28,646 nucleotides of DNA, from IMG/VR virus record IMGVR_UViG_3300021255_000007. One strand, 5' to 3'. The stretch is from a virus. The notes beneath the pieces are model-generated. The model was not told the DNA's origin. It was given only the letters and a program-made list of their open reading frames with translations, and did no database searches. The translations under genes were made by a program, and so were the position numbers. Each line of letters opens with the position of its first letter. Positions within the stretch are counted from its first letter, which is position 1. Of the stretch, positions 1 to 28,646 are shown one piece after another.

Positions 1-107
1 GACGAACAGAAGGCCCAGATGCAAACGGCCACGGGGTACGGACTCGATGAAGAGGAACGATATAGCGGTGCTGGTATCTCAGACGATGGTACTGGATCGG
101 TTTGGGG
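1..107. repeat. Left copy of a 107-bp terminal direct repeat (circular-closure overlap of the contig)
   Basis: Bases 1..107 match 28540..28646 base for base. The repeat lies inside an open reading frame, so it marks an arbitrary opening of a circular or terminally redundant assembly, not a physical end. Confidence 0.9.
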
Positions 108-7483: not shown

Positions 7484-8117
7484 CTTTCCGGTGGGGAGCA
7501 AAAACCTCACCGTCTACGGGCTGTATCAGTACGACTATGGGCAGGTTCTGAGCGTTTACGGCCTGCCGCTCCCTGCGGTGGTGGAGTGTCAGATCAGCCT
7601 CCAGAGCGTCGGAGGTACCACCGAGAGCGTGGCCGGCGTGGTCGAGAATGACGTGCTCAGCGTGGACATACCTGACACCTATCTGGCTCAGGATGTAGAG
7701 ATGAACTACAACGTCTATGTCTTTATCTACGTCACCACGGAAGCCAGTGGCACAACGGTCTACAAGGTCACCCTGCCGGTTACTGCGAGGCCTATGCCTG
7801 AGGGCTATGTACCAGGAGAGACGTCACCTTTTGCAACCGTCATTGAAACGGTGACGGAGCTCATGGAGGAGGCCAAGGATGCGGCAACACTTTCGGAAAG
7901 TTACGCAGTTGGAGGCACCGGCACCAGAGCCGGCGAGGACTACGATAACAGTAAATACTATTCCGAGATGGCGCAACAGGCCGCCACCGGAGCAGGCTAT
8001 GTATCCTTCGAAATCGTTTACCCTGGCTATCTGCACATGTATCGCACGGATAACCTGGAAGATAGCCTTGATTTTGCCATCAATGAGGCCGGAGAGTTGG
8101 AGGTAGTAATGTCATGA
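7470..8117 (+). CDS. Tail fibre-associated structural protein (function unknown)
   Basis: RBS GGAGGG 5 nt upstream. 215 aa. It carries a 'YQYDYGQVL' N-terminal motif and a fibre-like 'SESYAVGGTGTRAGEDYDNSKYYSEMAQQAA' segment, and lies between Tal and the large fibre gene. Confidence 0.5.
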   Translation: MVMANFPVGSKNLTVYGLYQYDYGQVLSVYGLPLPAVVECQISLQSVGGTTESVAGVVENDVLSVDIPDTYLAQDVEMNYNVYVFIYVTTEASGTTVYKVTLPVTARPMPEGYVPGETSPFATVIETVTELMEEAKDAATLSESYAVGGTGTRAGEDYDNSKYYSEMAQQAATGAGYVSFEIVYPGYLHMYRTDNLEDSLDFAINEAGELEVVMS

Positions 8118-10699
8118 GAGATATCAACCTTGGAAGAGTAACAGCTTACGCGGACGCAGTAGCAGCCGGGTACACCGGAACGCGGGAACAGTTTGCGGTT
8201 GATCTGGCCAACGCGGCGACTTATGCCGGAGAAGCCGGAGCGAGCGCAGAAGCAGCGGCAGCCAGTGAGACGGCGGCGGCAAACAGCGCAGAAGCCGCAG
8301 AGGCAGCGGCGCAGGTAGCGGCAGGAGCGGAAGACAGCGTACACGCGGACGCTCTGGCGGCGCAGGAAGCCAAGGCGGCGGCGCAGGCATCTGAGGAGAC
8401 AGCAGTAAGCAAGGCCGGCGAAGCTGCCAACAGTGCCGACTCCGCGAGAAACAGCGCAAGCGCAGCGTCTTCCAGCGCGTCGGCGGCGGCTACCAGCGAG
8501 CAGAATGCTTCCGGATCCGCAACAGCGGCGGCGGGATCTGCTACGGCGGCGGCAGCCAGTGAGACGGCGGCAGCAGAATCCGCAGAGGAAGCAGCGGAAA
8601 GCCTGGGAGAGGTGCAGGCGGCTGAGACCTCCGCACTCACCAACATCGACACGGCAAAAACCACCGCCCTGTCTGAGATCCAGACCAAAGGAGAGGAAAC
8701 CCGGGCATCTATCCCGGCGGACTATACCGCCCTGAGCGATGACGTCAATGACTTAAAGAGCGATTTGGAAAAGTATGACAATCCGTTCGAAGAGACAATA
8801 CCTGGTTATACTAGTGGTATCATCGGTATCAGTATTATTGATCCTGCTGAATCTAATTACACGTCATATCGGATAAGTGCCATCAGAAAAAATTCGTCAT
8901 GGCACTGGTTTATGACATTACAAGGATATAACGGTACAGATTGGGTTAATATTGACAATATCGCAAGTCAATACAGTGCAGGCGCTGTTTATCCTATGGT
9001 TGAAACGCTTTTCTCAAATTATAACAAGTACGCTGTTGTCATAGACTGGAACTATGTACGAACAGAAGACATTTCAACATCCGGAATTACCGAGATTGTT
9101 CTGAAAAATACAGTTGTCAACAAACCGTTTGTCAATGCTCTGGTAAAAATCAACACTAACCAGACCGATATTGCGAACCTGACAACAAATGAACAGATGT
9201 ACAATAGTGTATTTTCCGTGCCTGTCAACAGTAACGCACTTGGAATTGTTGACATCAACCTTTATAATCCATCATTTACCAACTATGAGAAATACCGCAT
9301 AAACATTCTCAGGCATAACTCAAGTTATCATTTACATCTGGTATTACAGGGTTGTATCGGTGAAACATGGACGAATATTGATTCAATTCTCGTCCGTGCA
9401 GAGAACGCACCTGAACCATTGCCTGCTGTGGAAGTTCTTGATAGCACTTATCACAGATTTACTGTGACAATTATATGGGCAATGATGGGGACATTGACTT
9501 TAACTGGACTGGATTATCAGCTTAAAAACAGCATCGTCAATCGTACACAGATAGCCTTACAAACACGGGTTGAAGATATTTCTAATATTCCTTCATTCGA
9601 ACTTGCTGACCACATCAAACATGTTGTTACTGTCAAGCCTGACGGTACGGGGGACTATACGACTATTGCCGATGCCTATGCTGCAATAACAGACAGTGCA
9701 TGGGATAATCAATATGAAATCATTGTTTATCCTGGAACGTACAATGAAAACAATCTCCAGCCCCCTGCATATACTCATACGCATGGCATCTATCCTATGC
9801 AGACGATTGTTGACAGCAGTGGTTTGTTTGACCCAGAAAATCCTGATTTAAGTGTATTTGATCAGGGGCACGCACCATCTAAATTATCAAACATGGTAAT
9901 CAGATCTCAAACAAAATACTGTGTGCATCAGGATGTCGAGTTAAAGGGTGTAACGTTAGTCAACGAAAACTTGTACTGTATCAGATTGACAGGCGGCAGC
10001 AGCGAAACGTCAGTAATCGGGATCGGTGCTGATTTTGACGGTGCTAAATTTGTATGGAGAAACTGCACGTTTGTAAATGGAGCAGTGGCGGCACATACTA
10101 ATCCTAATAACTTGCCTAATGCAAATCAGCATATCATTTACGAGAACTGTATATTTGTTGACGCTTATGTGTCCCTAATGGTAGCAGGCATCGGAGGCGG
10201 CGCAAGTGGTAACACATTTGGAGAGTATGTGTGCGAAATTAAGGGATGCACAGTGAACGAGGGAAGATCTGGATTAAATTTGAAGTTTGGTTATCCTGTT
10301 AGCGGTATTGATGTCAATTTCCCCTGGCAGATTATTGGCGGAAATAATAACTTTGCGCCTGTGTTCAATAATTCGTCTGATACTAGTGCTGTTGATTTCT
10401 GGGACGCTATCAGCACAACAGATAAAACTTATGCTATTGCTGCTGAAACAATAGCAAAGGGAAGTTTTGTGGCATTTGACGGAACAAAGGCAACAAGCGC
10501 AACAGATACCAGTTTTATTGCCGGACTTGCTGTTTCTGATGGTGCGCAAAATGATAGGGTGCAAGTGTGGAAAGCGCCGTTTGTTTACACTGGAAACAAT
10601 GGCGAATACGGACTCGATGCAACAGGCAACTTAGATTCCGGAGCATCAAATAAAATAGGCAGAGTATTCAACAATATATTCTATCCGTTTTATGGCTGA
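8114..10699 (+). CDS. Tail fibre / receptor-binding protein: Ala-rich stalk, two tandem homologous domains, C-terminal parallel beta-helix (depolymerase-like) domain
   Basis: 861 aa. Residues ~40-200 form an Ala/Glu/Ser-rich stalk. Residues ~222-360 and ~361-490 are clearly homologous to each other. From 'VVTVKPDGTGDYTTIADAYAAI' onward there are periodic rungs: 'NMVIRS','NENLYCIRL','WRNCTFVNG','YENCIFVDA','IKGCTVNEG'. Confidence 0.75.
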   Translation: MRDINLGRVTAYADAVAAGYTGTREQFAVDLANAATYAGEAGASAEAAAASETAAANSAEAAEAAAQVAAGAEDSVHADALAAQEAKAAAQASEETAVSKAGEAANSADSARNSASAASSSASAAATSEQNASGSATAAAGSATAAAASETAAAESAEEAAESLGEVQAAETSALTNIDTAKTTALSEIQTKGEETRASIPADYTALSDDVNDLKSDLEKYDNPFEETIPGYTSGIIGISIIDPAESNYTSYRISAIRKNSSWHWFMTLQGYNGTDWVNIDNIASQYSAGAVYPMVETLFSNYNKYAVVIDWNYVRTEDISTSGITEIVLKNTVVNKPFVNALVKINTNQTDIANLTTNEQMYNSVFSVPVNSNALGIVDINLYNPSFTNYEKYRINILRHNSSYHLHLVLQGCIGETWTNIDSILVRAENAPEPLPAVEVLDSTYHRFTVTIIWAMMGTLTLTGLDYQLKNSIVNRTQIALQTRVEDISNIPSFELADHIKHVVTVKPDGTGDYTTIADAYAAITDSAWDNQYEIIVYPGTYNENNLQPPAYTHTHGIYPMQTIVDSSGLFDPENPDLSVFDQGHAPSKLSNMVIRSQTKYCVHQDVELKGVTLVNENLYCIRLTGGSSETSVIGIGADFDGAKFVWRNCTFVNGAVAAHTNPNNLPNANQHIIYENCIFVDAYVSLMVAGIGGGASGNTFGEYVCEIKGCTVNEGRSGLNLKFGYPVSGIDVNFPWQIIGGNNNFAPVFNNSSDTSAVDFWDAISTTDKTYAIAAETIAKGSFVAFDGTKATSATDTSFIAGLAVSDGAQNDRVQVWKAPFVYTGNNGEYGLDATGNLDSGASNKIGRVFNNIFYPFYG

Positions 10700-22569: not shown

Positions 22570-22659
22570 GAGAGTGGGTACCGGGGCCTGAGGCCTTGGG
22601 ACAACCTACTCCCACCCAAGGACGGCCACCGACGAGGTAGCCGCCCTTTGTATTTGCTT

Positions 22660-22950
22660 ATGAAACCGTATGCAGAAAAGTTTTACAAGGGCAAGGCTTG
22701 GCAGGATTGTCGAGCTGCTTACGCCAAGAGCAAGGGCGGACTGTGTGAGCGGTGTCTTGCGAAGGGCATATATAAGGCCGGTGAGATCGTACACCATAGG
22801 GTGCACCTGAGCCCGGAGAACATAGGGGACGCAGGGGTAGCCCTGAACTGGGACAACCTTGAACTGTTATGCCGTGACTGCCATGCCGTTGAACATGGCG
22901 GGAAAAGGTATAAGGTTGACGAGTTCGGAAGAGTGACGGCGCGGGGATAA
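22660..22950 (+). CDS. HNH endonuclease (terminase-associated type)
   Basis: ATG 22660 gives 'MKPYAEKFYKGKAWQ...'. Motifs are 'CERC', 'VHHRVHL' and 'NLELLCRDCHAVEH'. The track's TTG start is at 22648. Confidence 0.85.
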   Translation: MKPYAEKFYKGKAWQDCRAAYAKSKGGLCERCLAKGIYKAGEIVHHRVHLSPENIGDAGVALNWDNLELLCRDCHAVEHGGKRYKVDEFGRVTARG

Positions 22951-22977
22951 CCCCCCTATATACCCCCTGGGGGTACC
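22951..22977. other. G/C-block palindrome between HNH and TerL (candidate cos / packaging-recognition element)
   Basis: CCCCCC-TATA-TACCCCC-T-GGGGGTA-CC. The 7+1+7 palindrome spans 22961..22975. Confidence 0.3.
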
Positions 22978-23036
22978 GAAATCACCGACCGATTGCCCCA
23001 AGGAGGAAAGAAGGTTGAGCGAGAGATGGGTGGGGA

Positions 23037-24752
23037 ATGGTGAAAAACAATTATATTTTCGACTACTACCAGAGAATTAAGACCGGGACGGTCGTAGTTG
23101 GGAAGTGGATACAACTGCTATATGGGTTTTTGATAACTGGCCTCGAAAAAGGCCGGTTTTTTTTCGACCAAAAAAAGGCGAACCACGCAATAGACTGGAT
23201 CGAAGCCCATTGCTTCCACACGGAAGGGCCGCTTGCTCCTGGGCCGCTCCTTTTGGAGCTCTGGCAAAAGTCTCTCGTCTCCATCATCTTCGGGATCGTG
23301 GACAAGGACGGCAAGAGGGTCTTCCGGGAGGTGCTTTTTGTGGTAGCCAGGAAGAACGGCAAGAGTCTCTTGTGTGCTGCCATAGCGAAATATATCTGGA
23401 TGGTTGAAGGCGGATATGGCGCAAAGGTCTTCTGCCTCGCTCCGAAGCTGGAACAGGCTGACATCATCTACATGAATACGTGGCTCATGACTACGCTGGA
23501 TCCGGAATATATAGCGCTGAAAGAGCTGTGCTCCAAGAAAGACGCGCATAACAAGAAAGTAAACGACGACTCGGAACTCCCAAAGAAAAGACAGAGCGAT
23601 CTGTATATCGCGGCGACAAACTGCGCCGTGAAGAAGATCACCTTTTCCTCGAAGAGATCCGACGGTTTTAATCCGTCTCTCTGTATCTGCGACGAAATAG
23701 CCGCGTGGGAAGGTGATCGGGGCCTGAAACAGTATGAAGTCATGAAGTCAGGTATGGGAGGCAGGCCGGAGCCGCTTCTGATTTCCTGCACTACTTCCGG
23801 GTATGTGAATGACAGCATTTTCGACGAGCTCATAAAGAGAGGGACGCGGTTCTTACTTGGCGACTCCAAGGAGAGCCGGCTGCTGCCGGTGCTCTACATG
23901 ATAGACGACGTAGATAAGTGGGACGACATCAACGAGCTTCGAAAGAGCAACCCGAACCTTGGCGTTTCCGTCACGGTGGACTATCTGGTAGAGGAGGCGG
24001 CGGTTGCCTCTGGCAGCCTGTCGAAAAAAGCGGAATTCATTACAAAATACTGCAATCTGAAACAGAACTCTTCCCTTGCCTGGCTGCCGGCGAAGGTCGT
24101 GGAGGGCGCCGTGTGCGACCACTTGAATCTGGAAGACTTCCGTGGCTGTTACTGCGTGGGCGGCATCGACCTGTCGCAAACCCGCGACCTTACGTCTGCC
24201 TGCATCGTGATACAGAAGGAGGAAAAGCTGTATGTTATCTCTCACTTCTGGCTGCCGGCGGAAAAGATTGACGAGGCGACGGAGCGGGACGGACTGCCTT
24301 ATAACGCCTATATAGCCAGGGGGTTGTTGACGCCCTGCGGGGAGAATTTCGTGGATTACGAGGCGGTCTATGAATGGTTCCGGATCATCGTGGAGAAGTA
24401 TGAGATATTGCCGCTGAAGGTAGGCTATGACCGCTACTCCAGCCAGTACCTTGTACAGAAAATGCAGGGGTACGGCTTCCACATGGATGACGTTTTCCAG
24501 GGTGAAAACCTGTGGGGCGTTCTCCAGGAGGTGCAGGGCTACCTCGAAGATGGCCGGATCTGCATCGGGGACAACGACCTCCTTAAGGTGCACCTGTTGG
24601 ACAGCGCCATAAAAATGAGCACGGAGAGAGGCAGGGGGAAACTGGTAAAACTAAGACCCTCTTCACACATAGACGGCACCGCCGCCCTTGCGGATGCCTT
24701 TACAGTCAGACAGAAATATTGGGCAGAAATCGGAGAACAACTAGCGAGGTAA
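23037..24752 (+). CDS. terL: Terminase large subunit (Terminase_1 / HK97-phi105 type)
   Basis: 571 aa. It has a Walker A-like 'VVARKNGKS', 'LCICDEIAAW' (Walker B/coupling), and a C-terminal nuclease region 'GGIDLSQTRDLTS'. Confidence 0.9.
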   Translation: MVKNNYIFDYYQRIKTGTVVVGKWIQLLYGFLITGLEKGRFFFDQKKANHAIDWIEAHCFHTEGPLAPGPLLLELWQKSLVSIIFGIVDKDGKRVFREVLFVVARKNGKSLLCAAIAKYIWMVEGGYGAKVFCLAPKLEQADIIYMNTWLMTTLDPEYIALKELCSKKDAHNKKVNDDSELPKKRQSDLYIAATNCAVKKITFSSKRSDGFNPSLCICDEIAAWEGDRGLKQYEVMKSGMGGRPEPLLISCTTSGYVNDSIFDELIKRGTRFLLGDSKESRLLPVLYMIDDVDKWDDINELRKSNPNLGVSVTVDYLVEEAAVASGSLSKKAEFITKYCNLKQNSSLAWLPAKVVEGAVCDHLNLEDFRGCYCVGGIDLSQTRDLTSACIVIQKEEKLYVISHFWLPAEKIDEATERDGLPYNAYIARGLLTPCGENFVDYEAVYEWFRIIVEKYEILPLKVGYDRYSSQYLVQKMQGYGFHMDDVFQGENLWGVLQEVQGYLEDGRICIGDNDLLKVHLLDSAIKMSTERGRGKLVKLRPSSHIDGTAALADAFTVRQKYWAEIGEQLAR

Positions 24753-24757
24753 CGAAG

Positions 24758-25915
24758 ATGGGCCTTTTTGATTTGATTTTTGGGAATCGGCCAAAGCCGG
24801 CGGGACGGTATGCCGGTACCTTCAAAATGTTGAACGGGTACGTGCCGAGGTTCACGAGTTGGCAGGGCTCCATCTATGAGGCGGAGCTGATACGGGCATC
24901 TATCAACGCGGTGGCTACGCACTGCTCTAAGCTGAGCGTAGTCACCAGAGGATCCGCAAAGAGAAAACTGCAGAACCGGCTGGCCAAAGGGCCCAACACG
25001 TTCGACACGTGGAGCCAGTTCATGTATAGACTGGCGACAATCCTCTACGTGAAAAACACTGCCTTTATAGTGCCGGTCTTTGACGACTACGGTGAGGTTT
25101 CCGGCATCTATCCGGTTCTCCCGGACTACTGTGATGTAGTGCAATATGGCGATGTGCCATATCTGCGCTATAAATTCTCCTGGGGTGACTGGGCTGCCGT
25201 TGAGTTGTCGTTGTGCGGGATCATGACGCGCTTCCGGTACCGCTCCGACTTCTTTGGCGAGAACAACGGGGCACTCCTTAACACGCTGGATCTGATTACA
25301 ATCCAAAGCCAGGGCATCCAGGAGAGCATAAAGAACGGCGCGTCCTATAAGTTCTCCGCCCGGCTGACGAACTTCTCCAGTCTGGAAGACCTGAAGAAGG
25401 AACGGCACAAGTTCACAGAGTCCAACCTGAAGGCTGACGCCAAGAACAACGGCCTCCTCCTTTTTCCGAACACCTACAGCGAAATACGGCAACTGGAGCC
25501 TAAGAACTATGTCGTGGATGCTGAACAGGTGAAGGTGATAAACGAGGGCGTCTATCAGTATTTTGGCGTCAACGAGGACGTGCTGAAGAACCGGGCCTAT
25601 GGCGATATGTGGAGCGCCTTCTATGAGGGCGCGGTGGAGCCTTTTGCGCTCCAGTTTTCGGAAGTCGTTACCAAGATGCTTTTCACCTTCCGCGAACGGT
25701 CGGAGGGATCCGAAATCATGGCTACAGCCAACCGAATCCAGTACATGAGCAACGGCGACAAAATGAAGGTCACGGAGACATTTGCGGATCGTGGCCTTGC
25801 CACCGTGAACGAGATCCGGGAGATATGGAATCTGCCGCCTCTGCCGCCTGAGATCGGGGACAAGATCCCGGCGCGTGGGGAGTATTACGACATCCGGGAG
25901 GGAAAAGATGAATAA
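24758..25915 (+). CDS. Portal protein (HK97 family)
   Basis: ATG 24758 lies 6 nt after the TerL stop. 385 aa with N-terminus 'MGLFDLIFG'. The track ORF from 24719 overlaps TerL. Confidence 0.85.
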   Translation: MGLFDLIFGNRPKPAGRYAGTFKMLNGYVPRFTSWQGSIYEAELIRASINAVATHCSKLSVVTRGSAKRKLQNRLAKGPNTFDTWSQFMYRLATILYVKNTAFIVPVFDDYGEVSGIYPVLPDYCDVVQYGDVPYLRYKFSWGDWAAVELSLCGIMTRFRYRSDFFGENNGALLNTLDLITIQSQGIQESIKNGASYKFSARLTNFSSLEDLKKERHKFTESNLKADAKNNGLLLFPNTYSEIRQLEPKNYVVDAEQVKVINEGVYQYFGVNEDVLKNRAYGDMWSAFYEGAVEPFALQFSEVVTKMLFTFRERSEGSEIMATANRIQYMSNGDKMKVTETFADRGLATVNEIREIWNLPPLPPEIGDKIPARGEYYDIREGKDE

Positions 25916-26543
25916 AACGATAGAGGAAAAACTGAACCAGGGGAGGCAGTACAGATCTGTAGTTGAAATCCGAGCCCTGGAAAACGAAGAGGAGTATACG
26001 GTTGAGGGCTATGCCACTACCTTCAACTCGCCATATACGCTTTGGTCTTGGGACGGCTATACCGTCCGGGAACAGATCGCGCCTACCGCCTTTTCTGAGT
26101 GCGACATGAGCGACGTTATCATGCAGTACGACCATGTAGGCCGTGTCTTTGCAAGAACGTCTAACACCACTTTGGAGCTTGCCGTGGACTCGCACGGCCT
26201 TAAGATCCGGGCGTACCTGGGCGGCACCGAGCTGGGCCGTCAGCTCTACAGTGAGATAAAGGGCGGCTATACCAACAAAATGAGCTTCGGCTTCCACGTG
26301 AAGGAGGATTCACGTGTAGAAACTGTGAATCATGAGAGTGGTGCTGTGGAAATCCTCCGCACCATCACCGAGATAGATAAGCTCTATGATGTGAGCGCCG
26401 TGAGCCTGCCGGCAAACGACGCCACCGAAATTTCTGCCAGAGCCACGGGCGAGGGAGTCATTGCCGAGGTCAAGGAGGAGATCCGGAAGCGTGAGGAGCG
26501 CGAGCGGCAGAGGAAAAGACTGAAATTACTTTTGGAGGTTTGA
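25908..26543 (+). CDS. Prohead protease (HK97 family, S78)
   Basis: ATG 25908 follows GGGAGGGAAAAG. The pattern is 'VEGYATTFNSPY...MQYDHVGRVFART...DSHGLKIRAYL...KMSFGFHV'. Confidence 0.85.
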   Translation: MNKTIEEKLNQGRQYRSVVEIRALENEEEYTVEGYATTFNSPYTLWSWDGYTVREQIAPTAFSECDMSDVIMQYDHVGRVFARTSNTTLELAVDSHGLKIRAYLGGTELGRQLYSEIKGGYTNKMSFGFHVKEDSRVETVNHESGAVEILRTITEIDKLYDVSAVSLPANDATEISARATGEGVIAEVKEEIRKREERERQRKRLKLLLEV

Positions 26544-26544
26544 A

Positions 26545-27684
26545 ATGGAATTAGAAAAAATGACCATTGAACAGCTTGAAGAGAAGAGAAGCGAGCTGAA
26601 GGCCAAGATTGAGGAGCCTGAGGCAGATCTTGACGCGCTCACCGAAGAGGTTCGGGCCGTGGTCGCTGAGATCGAGAAGAGAAAGGCGGAGGAAGCCAAG
26701 CGCGTAGAGCTGCGGAAGAACGTGGCCGCCGGCGCTGGCTCCGTCGTGGAGAAGATGAAAGAGGAGAACAGAAACATGCCTACCTTAGAAGAGATCCGGA
26801 AGAGTCCGGGGTATGTGAACGCTTACGCTAACTACATCAAGACCGGCGACGACAAAGAGTGCCGTGCGCTGCTTTCCACCAATGTCACCGGCGGACAGGT
26901 GCCGGTGCCTACCATGATCGAGGGCCGGGTAAAAACCGCCTGGGAGAGATCTGACCTCATGACCAGGGTGAGAAAGACCTATATCCGGGGCAACCTTCAG
27001 GTTGGCTTCGAGCTCTCCGCTGAGGGCGCTCTTATCCACACCGAGGGCGCTGCCGCCGGCAAGGAGGAGGCGCTGACCTTCGGCATCGTCTCCCTCACCC
27101 CGCAGAGCATCAAGAAATGGATCACCATTTCCGACGAGGCTATGGACATGGGCGGCGAGGAGTTCCTGAACTACATCTATGACGAGGTTACTTACCAGAT
27201 CGCCAAGAAGGCCGAGGCCGTGGTGCTTGACAAGATCAAGGCACTGACCGCCAGCGCAACCAGCACCGCCGTAAGCGTTGGCGTGGTTGCCGGTACCCCT
27301 ACCGTCGGAATTGTCGCCACTGCGCTGTCTATGCTCTCTGACGAGGCTGCCGACCCTGTTGTAGTCATCAACAAGCAGACCTACGCCGATTTCAAGGCCG
27401 CGCAGTATGCCAACAAGTTCAACGTGGATCCCTTCGAGGGGCTGCCTGTGCTCTTCAATAACAGCCTTCCAGTCTACTCCACTTCCGGAACCGCCGGCGA
27501 CACCTGGATGATCGTCGGAGACTTCGGCCAGGGTGCACAGGCCAACTTCCCGAACGGTGACGAGATCACCCTGAAGTATGACGAGCTGAGCCTTGCGGAG
27601 AAGGATCTTGTTAAGATCGTGGGCCGTGAGTATGTGGGCATCGGCATCGTTGCCGACCGTGCCTTTACCAAGGTCACTTTCTAG
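26545..27684 (+). CDS. Major capsid protein (HK97 family) with an N-terminal coiled-coil delta domain
   Basis: 379 aa. It has a Glu/Lys-rich N-terminal ~75 aa scaffold-like region followed by an HK97-like core. It sits directly after the protease. Confidence 0.85.
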   Translation: MELEKMTIEQLEEKRSELKAKIEEPEADLDALTEEVRAVVAEIEKRKAEEAKRVELRKNVAAGAGSVVEKMKEENRNMPTLEEIRKSPGYVNAYANYIKTGDDKECRALLSTNVTGGQVPVPTMIEGRVKTAWERSDLMTRVRKTYIRGNLQVGFELSAEGALIHTEGAAAGKEEALTFGIVSLTPQSIKKWITISDEAMDMGGEEFLNYIYDEVTYQIAKKAEAVVLDKIKALTASATSTAVSVGVVAGTPTVGIVATALSMLSDEAADPVVVINKQTYADFKAAQYANKFNVDPFEGLPVLFNNSLPVYSTSGTAGDTWMIVGDFGQGAQANFPNGDEITLKYDELSLAEKDLVKIVGREYVGIGIVADRAFTKVTF

Positions 27685-27704
27685 GTGATAGGTGGGAGTA
27701 GGAC

Positions 27705-28355
27705 ATGAAGATAATGGTTGCAATCCCGTGCATGGACATGATGCACACACTCTTTGTAAAGTCGCTCCTTGGGCTTAAGAGGGTCGGAGAAATGCAATTT
27801 GCATTCTCCGCCTCTTCCCTGGTGTACGACTCGCGCAACGGCTTGGCCAAGAAGGCCATAACGGAGGGCTTCGACTATATTCTCTGGCTGGACAGTGACA
27901 TGGAGTTCCCTGCCGATCTACTGGAGCGGCTTATGGAGTCCGGGAAGGACTACGTGAGTGCCCTGTACTTCAAGAGACGGCTTCCGGTGTCGCCGGTCAT
28001 CTATGAGAAGGTCGGGTATTACCACGGGGATGATGAAGTCACGCCGATAGCTGTGCCTTTTGCCTCTTATCCTGATTCACTCTTTGAGGTGGAAGGCACT
28101 GGCTTCGGGGCGGTTCTCCTCTCTGTGGAAGCCCTTAAGAAAGTGGTGGACAGGTACGGCGCTCCATTCTCCCCGATTCTGGGGTTCGGGGAAGACCTGT
28201 CTTTCTGTTTGCGCTGCAAAGAGGTGGGCGTAAAAATGTACTGCGATCCGACCATAAAGGCCGGACACGTAGGTTACAAGACATACACGGAAGAAGATTA
28301 CGAGGAGAAGCGAAATGCTGGAGAAGGTAAAGAATGCCCTGCGCATTACTACTAA
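27705..28355 (+). CDS. GT-A fold (family-2-like) glycosyltransferase embedded in the head gene module
   Basis: 216 aa. Motifs are N-terminal 'KIMVAIPCMD', DxD 'LDSDMEF' (gac agt gac at 27891..27899), 'EGTGFGAVLL' and 'GEDLSFC'. There are no TM segments. RBS is GGTGGGAG. Confidence 0.7.
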   Translation: MKIMVAIPCMDMMHTLFVKSLLGLKRVGEMQFAFSASSLVYDSRNGLAKKAITEGFDYILWLDSDMEFPADLLERLMESGKDYVSALYFKRRLPVSPVIYEKVGYYHGDDEVTPIAVPFASYPDSLFEVEGTGFGAVLLSVEALKKVVDRYGAPFSPILGFGEDLSFCLRCKEVGVKMYCDPTIKAGHVGYKTYTEEDYEEKRNAGEGKECPAHYY

Positions 28356-28646
28356 TGTGTTTGATGACGAGCTTAAGGGGCTGATTTATGCAGCCGCGTC
28401 GGATCTCAGAATCGCCGGCATTTCCGGGGCGGATCCCACAACAGAGGATCCGCTGATTATCCGGGCAATAATCACCTACTGCAAGGCCCACTTCGGGCAG
28501 GCGGAGGAAGGAGAGTATGACCGGCTTAAGGCCTCGTATGACGAACAGAAGGCCCAGATGCAAACGGCCACGGGGTACGGACTCGATGAAGAGGAACGAT
28601 ATAGCGGTGCTGGTATCTCAGACGATGGTACTGGATCGGTTTGGGG
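28315..28646 (+). CDS. Head-tail connector (gp6-like 'DNA packaging' family), N-terminal part; continues at 1..129
   Basis: ATG 28315 follows GAGGAG. 'MLEKVKNALRITTNVFDDELKGLIYAAASDLRIAGI...IIRAIITYCKAHFG' is the typical pattern of this family. The frame is open to the window end. Confidence 0.7.
   Translation, partial: MLEKVKNALRITTNVFDDELKGLIYAAASDLRIAGISGADPTTEDPLIIRAIITYCKAHFGQAEEGEYDRLKASYDEQKAQMQTATGYGLDEEERYSGAGISDDGTGSVW
28540..28646. repeat. Right copy of the 107-bp terminal direct repeat
   Basis: Identical to 1..107. Confidence 0.9.

Follow-up and report, generated by a model that had tools for sequence, protein, structure and literature searches.

Related systems and the gene under study

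To our knowledge, only a few mycobacteriophages have been shown to glycosylate their particles enzymatically, and a 2023 study by Freeman et al. is said to have found little evidence of virion glycosylation in other phages. The DNA analyzed here, IMG/VR virus record IMGVR_UViG_3300021255_000007 (28,646 nucleotides; the window, meaning this whole stretch), carries between the genes for its major capsid protein and a neck protein a gene predicted to encode a soluble glycosyltransferase (GT) of GT-A type, located at positions 27705 to 28355 on the + strand. Among described systems, the closest entity is the homologous A197 protein of Sulfolobus turreted icosahedral virus (STIV), the closest arrangement is a gene cassette of cluster J mycobacteriophages, and the closest function is that of the Che8 and Corndog enzymes, which are analogous, not homologous.

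STIV A197 is likewise virus encoded and is a minimal GT-A protein of ~200 amino acids (aa) with no extra domain, whose DxD and GED motifs align with those of the window's GT. It differs in coming from a virus that infects archaea and has a capsid of the double-jelly-roll type, not from a tailed phage, and the two proteins share ~21% identity. The STIV capsid protein is glycosylated, deletion of A197 abolishes replication, and the conservative change D151E delays it; glycosylation of the capsid by A197 itself is a proposal only (PMC10551542). From the alignment, D151 appears to be the aspartate of the A197 GED motif, opposite D164 here. Whereas A197 is essential in STIV, the GT is accessory in the phage family described below.

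Gp11 of the cluster J mycobacteriophage Baka is a true homologue (22% identity; hhalign probability, 97%; E value, 2e-11) and occupies the same slot, between capsid and connector genes (PMC3706429). It is the first gene after the capsid gene and heads a cassette that ends at the head-tail connector gene; Baka has 8 to 10 inserted genes there, including five glycosyltransferases, a kinase, and a methyltransferase, compared with one in the window, and the DxD of gp11 reads E-A-D. The role of the cassette was called unknown in a 2013 paper (PMC3706429), and a search of the literature turned up no report of glycosylated virions for cluster J phages.

The virions of Che8, Corndog, and Myrna are glycosylated by phage glycosyltransferases (PMC12363180, PMC11600133). 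Che8 gp108 to gp110, Corndog gp36 to gp38, and the Myrna enzymes O-glycosylate capsid and tail-tube subunits, and Che8 gp109 and gp110 and Corndog gp38 resemble the window's GT in being phage-encoded, nonmembrane proteins of ~205 to 230 aa. Corndog gp36 to gp38 lie in the head-gene block, just upstream of the protease gene gp39, while the Che8 glycosylation genes, unlike the GT gene here, occupy the extreme right of their genome. The hosts of these phages are Actinomycetota, as opposed to rumen Clostridia in the present case. Homology to Che8 gp109 and gp110 and to Corndog gp38 was considered and rejected (hhalign probability, 0.4 to 0.9%), and the GT cannot be filed with these enzymes; if it does the same job, it would represent an independent solution. 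The mycobacteriophage precedent invoked in the original prediction does not extend to the enzymes themselves.

Fold, family assignment, and catalytic residues

The open reading frame (ORF) starts with ATG and encodes 216 aa (24.3 kDa; isoelectric point, 5.1). Its extent, strand, and length were exactly as originally described, and all four motifs quoted as GT-A hallmarks (KIMVAIPCMD, LDSDMEF, GTGFGAVLL, and GEDLSFC) were present in the translation. The protein is predicted to be soluble; no membrane segment was found, the top 19-residue Kyte-Doolittle hydropathy being 1.37, in agreement with the original description. Motifs alone could not demonstrate a GT-A protein, so the assignment of the fold rests on structure prediction with a fold search and on a profile-to-PDB sequence search. 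By these means both the fold and the DxD proved to be real.

AlphaFold2, supplied with 26 homologues, modeled a single domain of the Rossmann-like alpha/beta/alpha kind, with alternating strands and helices and a mixed central sheet (predicted local distance difference test score [pLDDT], 89.7; predicted template modeling score, 0.86). Foldseek returned 347 PDB matches for this model at an E value of ≤1e-3, and the best 50 of the 347 were almost all GT-A glycosyltransferases. The top match was STIV A197 (2c0n; E value, 2e-9; template modeling scores, 0.61/0.68), followed, among the matches listed, by ColGalT1, LH3, mimivirus R699, Mnn9, SpsA, and polypeptide GalNAc-transferases. Predicted viral and phage GT-A models matched at 1e-17. 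The modeled fold is thus GT-A.

A family profile built from 18 members with 20 to 57% identity (alignment A4) identified 2c0n by sequence as well, with an E value of 1.5e-11 over positions 1 to 166 of 207 (~165 aligned), and A197 was the sole significant PDB sequence match of this profile. In the alignment, DSDM of the GT lies opposite DEDV of A197, and GEDLSF opposite GEDVYF. Curated libraries were less informative: all Pfam matches of the GT fell below the gathering threshold, the best being Anp1 (PF03452; 25.7 versus 28.8 bits), with Glycos_transf_2 (PF00535) at 17.2 versus 23.3 bits, and both spanned only residues ~42 to 87. Searches of NCBIfam gave nothing significant, and the PADLOC defense models gave no match. 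The profile search suggested in the original prediction, which had named Glycos_transf_2, succeeded against A197 and not against Pfam or NCBIfam. The PHROG family phrog_1574 ("unknown function") matched residues 2 to 194 (E value, 7.5e-21), and the A197-like family is unnamed in current curated libraries. A single-sequence search of the PDB returned only picornavirus VP1 (E value, 0.04), which was judged spurious.

Likeness to eukaryotic protein glycosyltransferases was also apparent. ColGalT1 (GT25), LH3, polypeptide GalNAc-transferases (GT27), and Mnn9/Anp1 (GT62) share the GT-A core and the DxD with its surrounding sequence; the family profile matched Mnn9 with an E value of 1.5e-4 and ColGalT1 with ~0.01, and Foldseek E values for the eukaryotic enzymes were 6e-9 to 1e-6. 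Unlike the GT, these are larger, multidomain enzymes of the eukaryotic secretory pathway, and the likeness is at the level of fold and says little about the acceptor.

Across the family alignment, at 20 to 57% identity, P8, D65, D164, C168, and H188 are invariant, and R44, D63 (≥90%), G133, G162, E163, F167, and G175 are nearly so. The DxD motif, D63-S64-D65 (27891 to 27899, + strand), is placed at the end of the fourth strand, aligns with the DxD of A197, Mnn9, and ColGalT1, and is the predicted ligand for a metal and the nucleotide-sugar diphosphate. Within G-E-D-L-S-F-C (residues 162 to 168; 28188 to 28208, + strand), D164 is predicted to serve as the catalytic base. The C-terminal histidine H188 (28266 to 28268, + strand), which does not vary in alignments A1 and A4, is predicted as the third metal ligand, a role we presume from what is generally known of GT-A enzymes. 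Judged from the model and the profile, the protein is almost certainly a functional, minimal, soluble, metal-dependent GT-A enzyme of the A197-like family.

Position of the gene in the late operon and in close relatives

The position of the gene next to head genes was confirmed in its details. Directly upstream lies the gene for the HK97-type major capsid protein (PF05065/phrog_10; 26545 to 27684, + strand), whose stop is separated from the GT start by a gap of 20 nucleotides (nt). The GT gene has its own ribosome-binding site, GGGAG (27694 to 27698, + strand), with a 6-nt spacer to the ATG. Downstream, the gene for the neck protein (head-tail connector, Phage_connect_2; phrog_5223; E value, 4.8e-24) starts at 28315 on the + strand and overlaps the GT gene by 41 nt, a start backed by the N termini of the neck proteins of relatives (conserved MLEKVK.ALRI.T). 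It leaves the window at 28646 and resumes at the window start; the full product is 117 aa and matches PF24829 (seen in locus L001). Neither the capsid-GT gap nor the sequence following the GT gene contained a promoter-like or terminator-like site. GC content (0.525) and GC content at third codon positions (GC3; 0.65) are in line with those of the flanking genes. These operon signals suggest that one late transcript carries the capsid, GT, and neck genes and that translation of the GT is tightly coupled to that of the other two.

The family is large: close homologues form 1,820 clusters at 90% identity, and the matching 50%-identity representative clusters number 7,429 at an E value of ≤1e-3, at least 1,745 at ≤1e-10, and 159 at ≤1e-30. 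Close homologues (53 to 77% identity) came chiefly from ruminant-gut viromes and Clostridia-binned contigs of metagenome-assembled genomes (MAGs). In every gene-called close homologue inspected, the order was S78 protease, PF05065 capsid, GT, and Phage_connect_2 neck, and stop and start codons usually overlapped or abutted. Spacing was measured between the back-translated motifs DPF[EA]GL (capsid) and GExxFC (GT) and not by gene calling; the capsid motif lay 741 to 862 nt upstream of the GT motif in 52/57 loci (not deduplicated), the window's value being 761 nt. The remaining 5/57 loci had space for one extra small ORF with weak head-fiber similarity. Among the papers searched, none gave an account of the head-gene linkage of the A197-like family or of its abundance in rumen phages.

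Extra ORFs between capsid and GT were seen in several loci. ORFs of 100 to 130 aa occupied this position in L009 (1684 to 1992), L030 (4553 to 4942), and L111 (3177 to 3533), with a weak match to phrog_5711 (E value, 4.7e-4), and phages from Manatee Spring had a conserved 100-aa phrog_3982 ORF there (e.g., L157, 5699 to 6001). Such ORFs may encode an alternative acceptor or a partner protein.

Among 80 viral contigs whose capsid was 50 to 70% identical to that of the window, the GT motif was found downstream of the capsid gene in 45 and was absent from 30 with enough sequence, and 5 were too short to score. Four GT-negative relatives had the neck gene directly after the capsid gene by ORF listing. 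In a tree of the first 17 capsids, GT-positive and GT-negative phages were interleaved, which implies that the GT was gained or lost repeatedly. The GT gene is accessory, and about half of the phage's close relatives carry the module.

Distant homologues in unrelated head modules

Linkage to head genes extended to homologues in very different phages. The Bacteroidales-binned phage L127 (34% identity) had the order capsid, GT, and neck, and a Streptomyces prophage (27%) had the GT after a PF05065 capsid gene. Three environmental phages from Manatee Spring (28 to 36%) showed scaffold, capsid, the 100-aa ORF, and GT. In a P22-like phage (24%), the GT domain lay between the genes for the coat protein and a tail accessory factor, and in Microcystis phage Mel-JY34 (25%), an SU10-type capsid gene was followed by the GT. 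A Methanobacteriales virus carried a homologue (29%) among its head and tail genes. In T7-like alphaproteobacterial MAG loci (L141 and L143, 4137 to 6666; 26 to 27%), the GT came directly after the portal gene (PF12236; E value, ~1e-151) and not the capsid gene. A Kribbella prophage (L146, 3760 to 7337, on a Kribbella sp. chromosome; 27%) had a PF05065 capsid gene, a small ORF, the GT, and a rhamnosyl-O-methyltransferase/CmcI-like gene. The Kribbella set resembles the O-methyltransferase and glycosyltransferase sets of mycobacteriophages with glycosylated virions.

Some relatives carried further sugar genes. Locus L019 (6001 to 7220) had two tandem A197-like genes in the order capsid, GT, GT, and neck, the second copy being checked against phrog_1574. 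A doubled GExxFC motif, with copies 575 to 822 nt apart, also occurred in L005, L080/L227 (one contig), L099, L138, and L254, as judged by the motif alone. A GT8-family gene lay just upstream of TerL in relatives (L151/L153, 467 to 1162), and GT8 was fused to an A197-like domain in the two-domain proteins P0127 and P0183. The GT8 genes and fusions point to a two-step glycan in some of these phages.

An archaeal homologue was identified in a Candidatus Iainarchaeum MAG (L139, 795 to 2904; 29% identity), directly after a gene for a HerA/FtsK-type ATPase. This is the packaging type of STIV-like viruses, and L139 may therefore be an STIV-like provirus with an A197 relative.

Virion proteins as the proposed substrate

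Taken together, these data make it reasonably probable that the substrate of the GT is a virion protein, and virion (capsid) O-glycosylation is in our judgment the best explanation. The argument for a virion protein is threefold: linkage to head genes is kept across unrelated modules, the GT is homologous to A197, which comes from a virus with a glycosylated capsid protein, and mycobacteriophage virion glycosyltransferases can, by precedent, sit in the head-gene block. The original prediction had proposed a virion-protein substrate from coexpression with head genes, and that proposal is strengthened by the head-module position of homologues only 20 to 35% identical and by the A197 homology. 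Since an acceptor has been demonstrated for no member of the A197-like family, A197 included, the substrate remains one that we infer.

If the capsid protein, the most likely acceptor, is modified, Ser/Thr enrichment might be expected at the modified sites of GT-positive capsids. Seven GT-positive and 10 GT-negative capsids were compared first; their total Ser/Thr was equal (46.3 versus 44.6), and an unbiased sliding-window scan found two capsid segments to be distinct. Residues 235 to 256 (LTASATSTAVSVGVVAGTPTVG; 27247 to 27312, + strand) are a tentative candidate for O-glycosylation, and residues 306 to 320 (NSLPVYSTSGTAGDT, with VYSTSGTAGDT; 27460 to 27504, + strand) are a second and somewhat better one. 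Summed over the two segments, GT-positive capsids had 13 to 16 Ser/Thr and GT-negative capsids 5 to 11, with no overlap, and at least three contrasts were independent on a capsid tree built without both segments.

The larger sample comprised 42 GT-positive and 26 GT-negative capsids, dereplicated at 97%. Mean Ser/Thr was 7.2 in GT-positive versus 6.1 in GT-negative capsids for residues 235 to 256 (unpaired P = 0.0015) and 5.6 versus 3.6 for residues 306 to 320 (unpaired P = 3e-7), while the rest of the capsid had 28.6 versus 31.3. Residues 306 to 320 taken alone were Ser/Thr richer in the GT-positive member of 8 of the 13 identity-matched pairs, poorer in 4, and equal in 1. A third segment, residues 166 to 177, emerged post hoc and is Ser/Thr poor in the window's own capsid; we take it to be the tip of the E loop, going by the HK97 fold.

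The product of the major tail (tube) protein gene (1077 to 1649, + strand; phrog_88; E value, 1.4e-49) is a possible second acceptor. It was originally described as ending in TGETTSTAAATAWFTT; that stretch is near the C terminus only, and the protein ends ...WFTTVYQPAE. The Ser/Thr-rich C-terminal tail KTGETTSTAAATAWFTTVYQPAE, encoded within 1077 to 1649 on the + strand, is a tentative candidate stretch. Counts of Ser/Thr in this tail were 6 to 12 in 5 GT-positive and 2 to 7 in 12 GT-negative phages, a trend toward higher values with the GT in which the ranges overlap and which is phylogenetically confounded, one clade dominating the GT-negative set. Overall, the Ser/Thr data are no more than suggestive and are compatible with O-glycosylation of capsid and tail-tube proteins.

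Several results weigh against glycosylation of the capsid or of the virion as a whole. The Ser/Thr effect was smaller in the larger sample, its direction unchanged, and in the 13 identity-matched pairs the two prespecified segments together were up in 6, down in 4, and equal in 3, which is not significant (Wilcoxon P = 0.20). The capsid stretch singled out in the original prediction (ASATSTAV...GTPTVG) thus falls within a region that is Ser/Thr richer in GT-positive capsids but does not reach significance in matched pairs. Ser/Thr-rich segments are present in GT-negative relatives too. The capsid protein ends ...AFTKVTF, without a Ser/Thr-rich C-terminal tail, which citing papers give as the mycobacteriophage acceptor. 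The capsid profile found no sequence relative in the PDB, and a single-sequence model of the capsid had a pLDDT of 42, unusable for judging the surface exposure of the segments. Cyanomyovirus homologues do not adjoin capsid or head genes, and no relationship of the GT to the proven virion enzymes Che8 gp109/gp110 and Corndog gp38 could be detected. The junction of capsid and neck genes could also be merely a tolerated insertion site.

Under virion glycosylation, the GT would be made late, from the transcript that also encodes the capsid and neck proteins. It would bind a host nucleotide-sugar of a common type through R44 and its neighbors (nucleotide) and through D63/D65 and H188 (metal and diphosphate). 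D164 of the GED motif would then act as the base that deprotonates a Ser/Thr hydroxyl, and transfer would probably be inverting, although the stereochemistry is uncertain because the structural neighbors include inverting and retaining families. An O-glycan would be added to exposed regions on the major capsid protein, and perhaps on the tail tube, before or during assembly, and progeny virions would bear O-linked glycans. A single enzyme implies a short glycan; relatives with tandem GTs, with GT8 (fused or separate), or with a sugar O-methyltransferase may make longer or methylated ones. In the gut, the modification might shield virions from antibodies or proteases or alter their stickiness, a speculation by analogy with mycobacteriophages. 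Donor, acceptor, stereochemistry, and benefit are thus all matters that we infer.

A broader idea, which we put forward tentatively and consider somewhat doubtful, is that A197-like minimal GTs are an ancient capsid-glycosylation module that travels with head genes and extends across archaeal double-jelly-roll viruses and the tailed phages with HK97 fold that belong to four or more bacterial phyla. In that case, sugar-coated virions would be common among rumen and gut phages and not a peculiarity of actinobacteriophages. The GT described here belongs to a different family from the mycobacteriophage enzymes and has a relative in an archaeal virus; it accompanies head genes in many phages that are unrelated to one another, and ruminant-gut viromes contain it in abundance. 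If it does modify virions, gut phage surfaces may often be glycan shielded, which would bear on recognition by antibodies, adherence to mucus, resistance to proteases, and the design of phage therapy, and STIV A197 would be placed in a functional setting.

Alternative functions

Some soluble GT-A enzymes of prophages, such as TarP of Staphylococcus aureus, modify teichoic acid, and the GT might in the same way decorate a host wall polymer (teichoic acid or cell wall polysaccharide intermediates), blocking superinfection or the sticking of progeny to debris. We consider this unlikely. The phage is a temperate one that encodes a serine integrase and a repressor, the GT is accessory in the manner of morons (45 contigs with it and 30 without), its PHROG relatives are classed under "moron, auxiliary metabolic gene," and TarP itself is a very weak, insignificant match of the family profile (E value, 0.23). 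TarP, other conversion GTs, and phage DNA GTs are also phage-borne GT-A proteins with DxD and ED. However, the GT gene lacks its own promoter and terminator and is translationally coupled within a late operon that lysogens do not express; the same gene position recurs in lytic-looking phages (T7-like and scaffold-plus-capsid types), and adjacency to head genes is conserved across unrelated phages. Conversion genes usually lie near att or lysis modules, and the GT gene has no conversion-type position, which accords with the original view that this is not a lysogenic-conversion context. TarP and TarS were absent from the best 50 of the 347 structural matches, and the GT is a minimal GT-A core that has no membrane partner and that lacks an acceptor-binding or oligomerization domain and a transmembrane segment.

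It is similarly improbable that the target is some other protein or a small molecule, such as an assembly factor, a minor head protein, a head fiber, a host protein, or a free glycoconjugate. The extra ORF of some relatives (with the weak head-fiber similarity to phrog_5711, or phrog_3982) could encode the true acceptor, the T7-like loci have the GT after the portal gene instead of the capsid gene, and the capsid Ser/Thr signal is weak. Set against this, the window has no extra ORF, its capsid and neck genes are the direct neighbors of the GT gene, and the major capsid gene is by far the commonest partner in the family.

Glycosylation of hydroxymethylated phage DNA bases, as a means of evading restriction, is very improbable. 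The GT does have R44, D63-x-D65, and E163-D164, and DNA glycosyltransferases of GT-A fold that show an R...DxD...ED pattern abound in phages, but those enzymes cluster with the base-hydroxymethylation genes that yield 5hmC or 5hmU and not with capsid genes (bioRxiv 10.1101/2023.12.21.572611). Among all large-enough ORFs of the 28.5-kb genome, no cytosine methyltransferase, TET/5mYOX dioxygenase, thymidylate-synthase-like hydroxymethylase, or deoxynucleoside monophosphate kinase was found; a genome without a hydroxymethyl-base pathway makes DNA glycosylation unlikely, and the original judgment that this is not a DNA-modification context stands. By both structure and sequence, the GT is nearest to A197 and protein glycosyltransferases and not to JGT, TarP, or the T4 enzymes.

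That the GT is catalytically dead and kept for a structural or regulatory role, or is a decaying insertion, is scarcely credible: its Pfam and NCBIfam scores are below threshold and it is dispensable in many relatives, but its catalytic residues are invariant at 20 to 57% identity in a family of at least 1,745 clusters at an E value of ≤1e-10, its predicted fold is compact and confident, and its ORF is intact with a composition like that of its neighbors.

Genome organization and additional observations

The first and last 107 nt of the window (1 to 107 and 28540 to 28646) are identical to each other, which indicates that the window holds a complete phage genome, ~28.5 kb long, in circularly permuted form. 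The same sequence was also found as a 28,594-nt metagenome contig. The phage, of rumen or gut origin, is a small temperate siphovirus. It has genes for a serine integrase, a repressor, Erf, NinB, SSB, RusA, and a replication initiator. In the late region, the order is HNH, TerL, portal, S78 protease, HK97-type capsid, GT, neck/adaptor proteins, major tail protein, tape measure, Dit, Tal, and fibers, with holin and endolysin genes after the fiber genes. The late operon wraps around the ends of the window, with the neck gene from 28315 at the 3′ end and an adaptor gene at 47 to 355 at the 5′ end.

The gene for an 861-aa tail fiber (8114 to 10699) had a GC content of 0.465 and a GC3 of 0.43, compared with 0.535 and 0.65 to 0.75 for the remaining genome. 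This low GC suggests that the receptor-binding module was recently exchanged.

Mechanically assigned ORF starts at TTG 24719 (24719 to 25915) and GTG 25875 (25875 to 26543) were longer than the gene calls on the matching contig, which correspond to a portal from 24758 (385 aa) and a protease from 25908 (211 aa). Many separate IMG/VR contigs (L007, L011, L012, L016, L017, L023, L040, L044, L074, and others) start ~4.7 kb upstream of the GT gene, at the start of TerL, and their assembly ends may match genome termini (cos or pac) beside the HNH-TerL pair (22648 to 24752 in the window).

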